This document shows positions 17,760 to 20,590 of a stretch of 64,000 bases of DNA, piece by piece; position 1 is the stretch's first letter, and every line of letters starts with the position of its first letter. A program made the position numbers and the translations under genes. The stretch lies in contig CAYHTZ010000005.1 of assembly GCA_964359735.1 (NCBI GenBank), positions 3,882 to 67,881 of the forward strand, in the 5' to 3' direction. Source of the stretch: an uncultured Candidatus Saccharibacteria bacterium (GTDB taxonomy: Bacteria > Patescibacteriota > Andersenbacteria > UBA10190). Below the pieces are notes generated by a model. The model ran no database searches. It worked only from the letters and a program-made list of their open reading frames with translations, and had not been told where the DNA came from.

Positions 17760-19172
17760 ATGTCGGCCATTTCTCAAAATCAATATCGCACACACGGTTG
17801 TTGTGAACTGCGGCCAATACATGCCGGGCAAGAAGTCACGCTGTCAGGCTGGGTAGACGTCCGCCGTGATCACGGCAAAATTGTATTTATCGATTTGCGT
17901 GATGAGAGCGGTATAGCCCAGCTCGTAATAACGCCGCCGCTGGCAACTGCCGAAGCCGCGCAACTCCGGTCAGAGTGGGTAATCAAAGTGTCAGGAAAAG
18001 TACAAGTTCGTCCGAAAGCTCAAGTGAATGCGAACATCGCAAGTGGAGAAATTGAGGTAGCAGTGGCCTCGCTTGAGATTATTAATGAGGCTGCCACGCC
18101 GCCGTTTGCCATTAACACTGACGGCCATGATATTAGCGAAGAGGTGCGACTCAAGTATCGCTACCTTGATCTGCGACGGCCGCGTCTGCAGCGTAATCTC
18201 CGCTTGCGCTCGAAGTTTGTAGAAGCCGCACGTCAATATTTATTTAGTCAGGGCTTTAACGAAGTTGAGACACCCTACTTTACCAGTACTACGCCAGAAG
18301 GATCGCGTGATTTTGTGGTACCCTCACGTCTCTATCCAGGTAAGTTCTTTGCCCTGCCACAGAGCCCGCAGCAGTATAAAGAGCTCCTGATGGTAGCTGG
18401 CTTCGAAAAGTACTTTCAAATCGCTCGCGCCTTCCGGGACGAAGACTTGAGAGCAGATCGCGGCTTTGAGCACACCCAAATTGACATGGAGATGAGCTTC
18501 GTAACGCGGGAAGATATTATGGCGCTTGACGAGGCAATGATCACATCAGCCGTGGAGGCTGTGGGCTTGACAGTGAAGGAGAAACCATTTCCACGATACA
18601 CCTACGCCGAGGCTATGAAGCAATTTGGCGCCGATAAGTTTGATCTCCGCACGGAAGAAGACAAAAAAGCCGGCCATCTGGCCTTTGCCTGGGTCACTGA
18701 TTTCCCATTTTTTGAGAAAACCGATGAAGAAGGTTGGACCTTTACGCATAACCCTTTCTCGGCGCCTCTGCCGGAACATCTCGAGTGGCACCTCAAAGGG
18801 GAAAACGTGGAGAAGATTATTGCGCAGCAATACGACTTGGTGTGTAATGGCGTTGAAGTAGGGGGTGGCAGCGTCCGCGCTCACAGGCCCGATATTTTGA
18901 AAGCAACATTTCGCATTATGGGGTACGACGAAGAGCGGATTGAACGTGACTTTGGCCATATGCTGAAAGCCTTGGGATCTGGCGCACCTCCGCACGGCGG
19001 CATTGCACATGGCGTGGAGCGCTTACTTATGACCCTCACCGGTGAGCAATACTTGCGCGAAGTCGTAGCCTTTCCGCAAACTTCCACCGGCCGCACTTCT
19101 GTCATGGATGCCCCCAGCCCCCTCACACCCGAACAACTCAAAGAACTCCACCTCAAATTGGATCTGAAATGA
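17760..19172 (+). CDS. aspS: aspartyl-tRNA synthetase, bacterial-type catalytic core but lacking the GAD insertion domain
   Basis: N-terminal OB-fold anticodon-binding domain; class II motif 2 FRDEDLRADRGFEHTQID; motif 3 region GGIAHGVERL. At 470 aa versus ~590, the sequence runs directly from ...DKFDLR into the WVTDFPFF segment with no room for a GAD domain. Confidence 0.8.
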   Translation: MSAISQNQYRTHGCCELRPIHAGQEVTLSGWVDVRRDHGKIVFIDLRDESGIAQLVITPPLATAEAAQLRSEWVIKVSGKVQVRPKAQVNANIASGEIEVAVASLEIINEAATPPFAINTDGHDISEEVRLKYRYLDLRRPRLQRNLRLRSKFVEAARQYLFSQGFNEVETPYFTSTTPEGSRDFVVPSRLYPGKFFALPQSPQQYKELLMVAGFEKYFQIARAFRDEDLRADRGFEHTQIDMEMSFVTREDIMALDEAMITSAVEAVGLTVKEKPFPRYTYAEAMKQFGADKFDLRTEEDKKAGHLAFAWVTDFPFFEKTDEEGWTFTHNPFSAPLPEHLEWHLKGENVEKIIAQQYDLVCNGVEVGGGSVRAHRPDILKATFRIMGYDEERIERDFGHMLKALGSGAPPHGGIAHGVERLLMTLTGEQYLREVVAFPQTSTGRTSVMDAPSPLTPEQLKELHLKLDLK

Positions 19173-20590
19173 CCTGGAAGAAAGTCTGGTCCAAACGGTT
19201 TTCGATTCGCTTAGCCGAGAACTGGCTCTATTCGGTTGAGCAATTTCCTCAGATATTCGGGGTGAAATTTCCCGACCAACTGATTGTTATCAAGGACGAG
19301 ATGGGGACGGGGTACCATGATGCCGAACAGCTTGAGAAGTGTCTCCAGGGCATTCTTAGAAAGATTTACGCATCCTCATTTGAGACTGTATACGAAACCA
19401 AAGCTTTACCAGTGCTGGAAAGTTTTCGGAAGTTTTGTCTCGCCATAGGGAAGCGCGATTTGGAAAAGCACTCCGCCGATCAGTTCATTGAGTTATGGCA
19501 AGAATTTATTACCCAAGAGGATGACTGGATGAATTATGTGTGGGCAGTCTTCAGTCTTGATGAAATCCTTTCGCGCGAGCTGAACAAGGAGCTACCTAAG
19601 GCTGTTACCAAAGATAAATTGGAACAGATTCTCTCGGCCATATTTTCCACCGAAAGGAAGACCGCAGCTGCTCAGCAACGCATAGACCTCTTGAACCTGG
19701 CTGCCCGAGCAACTCCTGAAAATCGAGAAGAAGGGCTCGCCCAGCTAACTAATCACTACGCCTACTTTCCTATACTCAACATGGATGAAGATCCCTTATC
19801 TCCCGAATACTTTGCCCGCGAGCTCAAGAAAATACCGCCGGAAGATGCTAAAGCTGAGCTCAAAAAGCTCGCAACCGCAGCCAGGCAGCATCAGAAAGCA
19901 TACAAAGAATTTCTCGCCTCCATTGAAAACAACCAAAAACTTTACCGCCTCGTCGATGCCTGCCACAGGGTGGCCTTTTACCGCGAATACCGTAACGACC
20001 TGCGCCAGGAAAGCTATTACCACGCACGAGCGCTCTATCAGGAAATAGCTCGCCGCCTGCAGCTGAGTATTTCTGGCGTTACCTATCTCACCAGATATGA
20101 AGTGAAAGAGTCGCTAGAGAAAGAAAACCCGGCGATCTCGCCAAGCCTAATCGCAGAGCGGAAAAAGTTTTCGGTTCTTCGTATCGAGGGAGGGCAAGTT
20201 TCGTATCACTTTGACCCGGCCACAGCGGATTTTTTGCCGCATACTGAAGAGTTACAGGGTGGTAAAAATATATTAACCGGAGTAGCGGCTTACCCTGGCA
20301 CAGTCCGTGGCAGAGTGAAGGTAGTACTGAGCGTTAAAAAAGACACAGATAAGTTTGAGCCCGGGGATATTCTTGTAGCCACCACGACTAACCTTAGTTT
20401 CATGCCGCTCATCTCGAAGGCCAGCGCCATTGTGACTGACGAAGGTGGTATGCTCACTCACACAGCCATTGTGGCCCGGGAGCTCAAAAAACCCTGCGTT
20501 GTCGGTACTGAAGTAGCTACCACGTTCCTCAAAGACGGAGATGAAATAGAAGTTCAAGCTGATAAAGGAATCGTAAGAATACTTGGGTAG
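19169..20590 (+). CDS. protein with C-terminal PEP-utilizing-enzyme mobile (phosphohistidine swivel) domain and uncharacterized alpha-helical N-terminal domain
   Basis: C-terminal ~110 aa ([10 protein letters not shown]...[48 protein letters not shown]) matches the PEP-synthase/PPDK swivel domain, including the conserved His. No ATP-grasp or PEP/pyruvate-binding TIM barrel is present. Confidence 0.6.
   Translation: [473 protein letters not shown]

Follow-up and report, generated by a model that had tools for sequence, protein, structure and literature searches.

A grasp-less helical and swivel-domain protein from a Patescibacteria genome resembles the acceptor component of rifampin phosphotransferase-type dikinases

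Rifampin phosphotransferase (RPH) of Listeria carries an ATP-grasp domain, a domain that binds rifampin (RIF; the RIF-BD) and a swivel domain with a catalytic His in a single chain. Its two-component homologues HpeHI, CreHI, and PpsAB have been characterised and need both components, HpeI being the ATP-grasp protein and HpeH combining a RIF-BD-like domain with the swivel; mutating the conserved His of HpeH abolishes activity (PMC12167813). The literature found on two-component dikinases consists of aromatic-catabolism papers only. Here, a gene of comparable layout is described from 64,000 nucleotides of an ultra-small, uncultured Candidatus Saccharibacteria bacterium from groundwater (GTDB lineage Patescibacteriota; Andersenbacteria; UBA10190; contig CAYHTZ010000005.1, positions 3,882 to 67,881), hereafter the window. 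The gene (19169..20590, plus strand) is a 473-aa open reading frame (ORF) with a helical acceptor domain and a swivel His domain, and without ATP-grasp. Its product is probably the component of an RPH-type small-molecule, water dikinase that holds the acceptor and carries the phosphate, as HpeH, PpsA, and CreH do. The protein is read as half of a dikinase because its homologues are fused to an ATP-grasp domain or encoded beside one.

Like HpeH (of HpeHI, Rhodococcus), CreH, and PpsA, the 473-aa protein consists of a RIF-BD-like substrate domain followed by the C-terminal swivel His. The likeness is one of domain architecture. HpeH, CreH, and PpsA are ~45% identical among themselves. In all three known systems the grasp is a separate protein, and relatives of the 473-aa protein likewise have a separate grasp gene of ~316 aa nearby. 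HpeH is larger, with its catalytic residue at His581 compared to His431 here. While the HpeHI partner genes lie together in aromatic-catabolism pathways and act on phenolic substrates, the 473-aa gene has no partner nearby, sits in the genome of a genome-reduced Patescibacterium, and is not surrounded by a catabolic cluster. Multi-copy arrays are found in relatives of the 473-aa protein and have not been reported for HpeHI.

The best structural match of the whole protein is RPH of Listeria (RPH-Lm; PDB 5FBS/5FBT/5FBU and 5HV1-3), with which it shares the order of central domain and swivel. However, RPH-Lm has its ATP-grasp in cis (residues 1-314), its RIF-BD is larger (residues 327-754, compared to ~360 aa here), and the two proteins are only ~15-18% identical. 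Of the features that mark the RPH-type dikinase superfamily (Stogios et al. 2016), the central fold (by the predicted model), the Arg-Glu block, and the swivel His are supported and the cis ATP-grasp is absent, an absence that defines the two-component subfamily. The analogy to rifampin phosphotransferase drawn in an earlier, sequence-only reading of this DNA was well placed. That reading had also proposed one half of an undescribed kinase system; the half is borne out by the fused or adjacent grasp of homologues, while "undescribed" does not hold given HpeHI, CreHI, and PpsAB. The split two-component design is already known, and it is the branch from bacteria of the Candidate Phyla Radiation (CPR) and from DPANN archaea that is itself uncharacterised. 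Its distinguishing features are the smaller size of the acceptor domain, a partner that is presumably dispersed, and, in relatives, arrays or polyproteins of several modules.

Other related enzymes match the swivel only. The prodiginine-condensing enzymes PigC, RedH, and HapC, of the same superfamily, also end in a C-terminal swivel, and their NCBIfam models match residues 364-472, but with 86-90 bits against cutoffs of 1300-1350; they are ~880-aa single chains encoded in pigment clusters. Phosphoenolpyruvate (PEP) synthase, PPDK, and PTS Enzyme I have a homologous swivel domain and, presumably, the same swivelling phospho-His chemistry. Their acceptor domain, a PEP/pyruvate TIM barrel, is missing from the 473-aa protein, and PEP synthase and PPDK carry the grasp in cis. 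The PEP synthase and PPDK equivalogs were not reached, with 105 bits against a cutoff of 598 for NF005057, 102.8 against 739.75 for TIGR01418, and 37 against 843 for TIGR01828, all on the swivel only. The rifamycin phosphotransferase equivalogs scored 81.6 bits against 999 (NF041857) and 64.8 against 1700 (NF000283), aligning to residues 259-472 only. Judged by these NCBIfam equivalog cutoffs, the 473-aa protein is not a rifamycin-inactivating enzyme.

The PEP-utilizer mobile (swivel) phosphohistidine domain occupies residues 363-472 (20255..20584, plus strand) and was identified with PF00391 and with sequence matches in the PDB. PF00391 matched residues 396-467 along the entire model (positions 1-72 of 72) with E=2.7e-23 and 81.8 bits against a cutoff of 23.1. 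Residues ~358-472 aligned to solved swivel domains of PEP synthases and RPH with E=5e-22 to 2e-18, and the PDB matches of the swivel also included pyruvate kinase, PPDK, and Enzyme I. In alignments, the predicted phosphocarrier, His431 (codon 20459..20461, plus strand; GGMLTH431TAIVARE), falls on the catalytic His of both RPH and PEP synthase. It was invariant in 56 of 56 aligned homologues, as were T407, A433, R437, and E438. The T/S-x-x-G-G-x-x-x-H loop defined in PMC12167813 is present as T423-D-E-G-G-M-L-T-H431, with T423 and G426 each retained in 54 of the 56. The matches of the ORF and of the swivel and the conservation of the His are far beyond chance. The swivel domain and its phosphorylatable His (THTAI), whose conservation the sequence-only reading had marked for checking, are therewith confirmed. 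Neither the ATP-grasp family PF01326 nor any family of the PEP/pyruvate TIM barrel was detected in the 473-aa protein with Pfam and NCBIfam, in agreement with the same reading.

The N-terminal ~360 residues are not assigned to a Pfam or NCBIfam family of their own; the sequence-only reading had described them as a helical region of about 350 aa without a recognisable motif. The region remains helical and without a family, but it is no longer without a counterpart. Foldseek (E~5e-14), a profile containing the catalytic Arg-Glu pair, and NCBIfam alignments all place a RIF-binding-domain-like helical substrate domain at residues 1-360 (19169..20248, plus strand). The alignment of the 56 homologues served as the basis of an AlphaFold2 model, of the RPH profile, and of the conservation counts. 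The model had a mean pLDDT of 93.6 and a pTM of 0.89; it is mostly helical with two small beta elements up to residue ~350, followed by a short linker and a beta/beta/alpha swivel. With this predicted model as query against the PDB, all six Listeria RPH entries took the top ranks, with E-values of 4.6e-14 to 1e-11, TMq values of 0.39-0.62, and ~450-566 aligned columns; 5hv1/5fbs/5fbu of RPH-Lm led with E 5e-14 to 1e-13 and TMq up to 0.62 over ~550 columns. Matches other than RPH (pyruvate kinase, PPDK, Enzyme I) had a TMq of ~0.2 at most, corresponding to the swivel alone.

The profile of the 56 homologues aligned to RPH residues 625-866 with E~1e-36, spanning the last ~130 residues of the RIF-BD. 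The NCBIfam rifamycin phosphotransferase model (NF041857) and PRK06241.1-2 aligned from residue ~255-259, ~100 residues ahead of the swivel domain, at scores far under their cutoffs. In the profile alignment to 5fbs/5hv2, the family R-E-Y motif falls on Arg666-Glu667-Tyr668 of RPH, so that R272-E273 corresponds to Arg666-Glu667 (block 9) and R272-E273-Y274-R275 (19982..19993, plus strand) is the predicted phosphotransfer site. R272 is R/K in 47, E273 is E/D in 44, and R275 is R/K in 51 of the 56 homologues. In RPH, Arg666 and Glu667, which are essential for the second phosphotransfer, contact His825 and the phosphate being transferred; replacing them abolishes the phosphorylation of rifampin but leaves the first partial reaction intact, and even the most distant superfamily clades keep the Arg-Glu(-Lys) block (PMC4844700). 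Because of the fold match, the profile alignment, and the Arg-Glu conservation, the N-terminal domain is assigned, by its predicted fold and by sequence over its last ~130 residues, as the counterpart of the RPH substrate-binding domain and not as a degenerate ATP-grasp. Weak hits to NifW (E=0.047), Gins15 (0.045), and tropomodulin (0.084) were dismissed as sub-threshold chance matches in helical, charged sequence.

A protein search returned 258 homologues from CPR bacteria and DPANN archaea, mostly ~470 aa in length with PF00391 alone. With the helical domain alone as query, 463 cluster representatives were found at E<=1e-3 among 1.84 billion. Most of these relatives are stand-alone proteins of ~470-490 aa, and ~90% of the top 150 are stand-alone at ~440-500 aa. 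One of the homologues is P0018, with 794 aa and 41% identity over 100% of the query. In P0018, a complete PPDK_N ATP-grasp (aa 1-~335) is followed directly by the helical and swivel domains. The Met1 region of the 473-aa protein aligns to P0018 342-360 (VWKKIWSKGHSVRLAENW), right after SRPITTL at the end of the grasp, and therefore the gene boundary here equals the domain boundary in P0018. In seven loci the ATP-grasp is also fused as the head (L013, L015, L020, L021, L025, L040, and L088), and in three it is a separate ~316-aa gene that lies two genes upstream of the family member (L001 8158-9108), overlaps its start (L011), or follows directly downstream (L024). The grasp domains of family loci are 55-69% identical to each other across bacteria and archaea.

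By analogy to RPH and HpeHI, the gene for an ATP-grasp protein would lie elsewhere in the genome; this protein would bind ATP, phosphorylate His431, and free AMP and Pi. The swivel domain would then re-dock onto its own helical domain, where R272/E273 would hold the phosphohistidine in place so that its phosphate can pass to a hydroxyl group of a small molecule bound in the helical-domain cleft. Mean pairwise identity among the homologues is 22% in the helical domain and 51% in the swivel. In the RPH superfamily, the central domain likewise diverges fast and the grasp and swivel domains stay conserved (PMC4844700). The contrast between the fast divergence of the helical domain (~22%) and the conservation of swivel (~51%) and grasp (55-69%) suggests that the substrates vary while the charging module is shared.

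The organisation of the family was further resolved by a contig scan that started from the swivel His motif and gave 80 loci; roughly half of these turned out to be ordinary PEP synthases and were left out of the tallies. Stop-to-stop ORFs were taken from every fetched locus and searched with hidden Markov models (HMMs) of the helical, swivel, and grasp domains. The 37 non-redundant family loci contained 95 swivel modules and 12 grasp domains, and 10 of the 37 held at least three modules. Tandem helical and swivel genes occurred in at least 12 co-directional copies on Nealsonbacteria contig MHMM01000017.1 (L018 1-18930, overlapping L006), in 8 copies in Falkowbacteria (L030), in at least 6 copies each in Woesearchaeota (L017) and Uhrbacteria (L012), and in 4 copies in Nanoarchaeia (L028). 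Long co-directional tandem arrays were also found at L011, and such arrays often had no ATP-grasp in view.

Other loci carried giant, uninterrupted ORFs with one N-terminal PPDK_N grasp and 2 to 8-9 modules apiece, every module being closed by a swivel His domain. The longest of them encodes 3768 aa with 8-9 swivels (L015 2525-13828, plus strand), followed by 1997 aa (L020 6935-12925), 1410 aa (L025 5717-9946, after which four more module genes follow), 1311 aa (L013 384-4316), and 1233 aa (L040 7955-11653). Some inter-swivel segments of ~235-260 aa in the giant ORFs were not matched by the helical-domain HMM. In L088, a fused head gene is followed by four grasp-less paralogues. Within arrays, N-domains are 22-25% identical (maximum 34%) and swivels 48-59%; the copies differ too much to be artefacts of assembly.

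These arrays, together with the fast-evolving helical domain, suggest many different substrates. The window gene may be a dispersed member of a CPR/DPANN-specific battery in which one conserved ATP-grasp charger serves many diverging acceptor modules, a proposal that we put forward tentatively. It is equally tentative that charging takes place in trans, within tandem arrays (of at least 12 genes) or polyproteins (one grasp and up to 8-9 swivels). No description of a one-grasp, many-module organisation was found in the literature searched on CPR, Patescibacteria, and DPANN, the coverage of which was incomplete. If such a battery exists, genome-reduced episymbionts would have in it a small-molecule dikinase system for multiple substrates, e.g., for trapping or scavenging host or environmental metabolites or for inactivating antibiotics.

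Several observations weigh against the assignment as a dikinase component. An ATP-grasp gene is absent from the 64-kb window (tblastn with three grasp queries, best E~2, and HMM search), and none occurs in the 2.8 kb by which a second assembled contig (L090) extends past its right end. A grasp was also missing from view in 25 of the 37 family loci; locus views comprise flanks of +-10 kb on many short contigs, and absence from view is therefore weak evidence. The first ~230 residues resemble RPH by predicted structure only (TMq 0.54-0.62, root-mean-square deviation 7.5-9.7 A), and the equivalent of Lys670 is not strictly aligned, with N276 at that position and R275 beside it. The search for a partner reading frame recommended by the sequence-only reading thus failed at this locus and succeeded in homologues, where the grasp is adjacent or fused. 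By analogy with these, the partner ATP-grasp would be encoded elsewhere in the genome and act in trans.

Past the right end of the window, L090 carries genes for an HD protein, for PEPcase_2, and for a second swivel protein without ATP-grasp. This second swivel protein (L090 1288-2310, about window 64466-65488, minus strand) has 340 aa, with PF00391 at E=7.6e-27. Its swivel is 52% identical to that of the 473-aa protein, and its ~230-aa N-domain is unrelated by BLAST. The gene adjoins an archaeal-type PEP carboxylase gene (PF14010) and the HD-domain gene. No second helical and swivel paralogue was found in the 64-kb window by HMM search, and orphan single copies also occur in the close relatives L087 and L089.

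The missing partner could also mean that there is no dedicated grasp, and that the protein is a phosphoryl shuttle that receives its phosphate from a phosphorylated metabolite or from the nucleotide-binding domain of another PEP-utilizing enzyme (PEP synthase or PPDK) and hands it on to its acceptor, exchanging phosphate between small molecules. HpeH alone moves phosphate from 4-phosphoacetophenone to acetovanillone (PMC12167813), which provides a precedent. The empty surroundings in the window and in 25 of 37 loci, the predominance of stand-alone proteins among the closest helical-domain relatives, and the occurrence, next to a PEP carboxylase gene, of a second swivel protein lacking a grasp are all in line with such a shuttle. 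However, every visible partner in the family is a PPDK_N ATP-grasp, fused or adjacent, and the strong conservation of the swivels across paralogues (56-59%) is what one would expect if they dock to a common charging domain. Given also the limited reach of the flanks, we consider a shuttle unlikely.

It is quite improbable that the gene is a decaying, non-functional relic, left behind when the ATP-grasp gene or an array was lost. A single copy with neither partner nor paralogue inside the window would fit this explanation, as would the frequent rearrangement of relatives and their frameshifted or fragmentary modules (L086, L030, and L017). The gene nevertheless looks intact: the ORF is full-length, its start coincides exactly with the domain boundary, none of the invariant or catalytic residues is lost, the fold is predicted with very high confidence, and an identical copy is present in an independent assembly. 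It is also tightly packed in a string of housekeeping genes, and the other orphans, L087 and L089, are conserved equally well.

A functional coupling to aspS, e.g., through phosphorylation or regulation of some part of Asp-tRNA or aminoacyl metabolism, is very improbable. The aspS gene (17760..19172, plus strand; class II Asp-tRNA ligase type, 470 aa; PF00152 E=6e-108 and OB anticodon domain) precedes the 473-aa gene, whose ATG shares 4 nt (ATGA) with the aspS stop in the junction ...ctg aaA TGA cc.... The overlap had been noted in the sequence-only reading and is confirmed, and the arrangement is repeated behind aspS on an independent Hainich groundwater contig with an identical protein. That contig, however, comes from the same organism, and family members elsewhere have other upstream genes, namely a ~290-aa RHG-motif gene (L001 and L088), ribH (L003), small ORFs (L087), an ATP-grasp, or a divergently transcribed topo VI subunit gene (L089). 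Because the same 4-nt overlap recurs between unrelated genes of the string and the neighbours of homologues differ, the overlap gives no functional link to aspS. It probably reflects a compact co-directional string and co-transcription, and not a shared function.

The reading as an ordinary truncated PEP synthase or PPDK fragment with a degenerate ATP-grasp N-terminus, which the sequence-only reading had raised against itself and to which the best NCBIfam names (PEP synthase models) and source annotations ("PEP-utilizing enzyme" or "phosphoenolpyruvate synthase") would point, is hardly conceivable and is refuted by the architecture of P0018, in which a complete ATP-grasp precedes the helical domain and does not replace it, and by the AlphaFold2 model, RPH profile, and Foldseek matches, which give a helical, not alpha/beta ATP-grasp, N-domain matching the RIF-BD, while the TIM barrel is missing and the NCBIfam matches span residues ~360-470 only (105 bits against a cutoff of 598).

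For annotation, the label "PEP-utilizing enzyme / PEP synthase" in CPR genomes would change to the acceptor half of an RPH-like dikinase; metabolic reconstructions might otherwise score such genes as gluconeogenic PEP synthase. Genomes of Patescibacteria and DPANN are tiny, yet some hold a dozen or more genes or 3,700-residue polyproteins of diversified modules. This suggests that phosphorylation of many small molecules is important for a host-dependent lifestyle. An arrangement of one charger and many acceptors, if true, would be a new way to build substrate range into swivelling-domain dikinases, and the family could be an unexplored reservoir of antibiotic- or xenobiotic-modifying enzymes.

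In the window, the 473-aa gene belongs to a co-directional string of aspS, the 473-aa gene, an S41 peptidase gene, rplI, and pyrG. Position 19169 is the earliest possible start codon downstream of the preceding in-frame stop, and the peptide quoted in the sequence-only reading is found in the translation. The S41 (Ctp-type) peptidase gene lies downstream (20634..21866, plus strand; ORF list and Pfam), and no terminator-like sites were found between aspS, the 473-aa gene, and the start of the peptidase gene. Further 4-nt and 14-nt overlaps occur within the aspS-to-pyrG string, one 4-nt overlap being 21863-21866. Genes identical to those of the window were found on Hainich groundwater contigs from 0.1 um filters.

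In relatives, a conserved gene of ~290 aa stands directly upstream of the closest helical and swivel homologues (L001 9110-9985 and L088 6795-7667, 45% identity). Its N-terminal RHG(D/E)K and later QVGH motifs are reminiscent of histidine phosphatases; the gene had no significant Pfam match and is absent from the 64-kb window. A SMODS/AGS_C gene (CBASS-like nucleotidyltransferase; L001 5697-7052) lies a few kb upstream of the grasp and helical-swivel cluster, near a LexA-like repressor, a DNA methylase, and a serine recombinase, which suggests a mobile or defence island near the dikinase cluster. PADLOC returned no match for the 473-aa protein, the ATP-grasp, or the ~290-aa neighbour gene, and a defence-system reading was dropped despite the CBASS-like genes near L001. 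In L086, the ATP-grasp frame is divided between two overlapping ORFs (9093-10058 and 10001-11647), with 273/322 aa in one and the first ~60 aa of the 549-aa P0010 in the other, i.e., a frameshift in an otherwise fused grasp-helical-swivel gene. The frameshift may not be a sequencing error, since further similar places carry the P0010 protein.

The gap ahead of aspS (window 17011-17759) is unusually long at ~750 nt. Within it lie tRNA-Lys(UUU) at 17172-17245 (minus strand), a sigma-70-like site close to consensus (17271-17298, 11/12 matches), and, shortly upstream of the aspS start, two terminator-like hairpins (17650-17719). Upstream of the gap, two adjacent overlapping genes on the minus strand (15663-16367 and 16348-17010) encode proteins of 234 and 220 aa, neither with a significant Pfam family. 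The two resemble paralogues, with an N-terminal hydrophobic segment and the common motifs RIHDR(S/G)F.VVG.L and TSSTY(R/K)P.TY.

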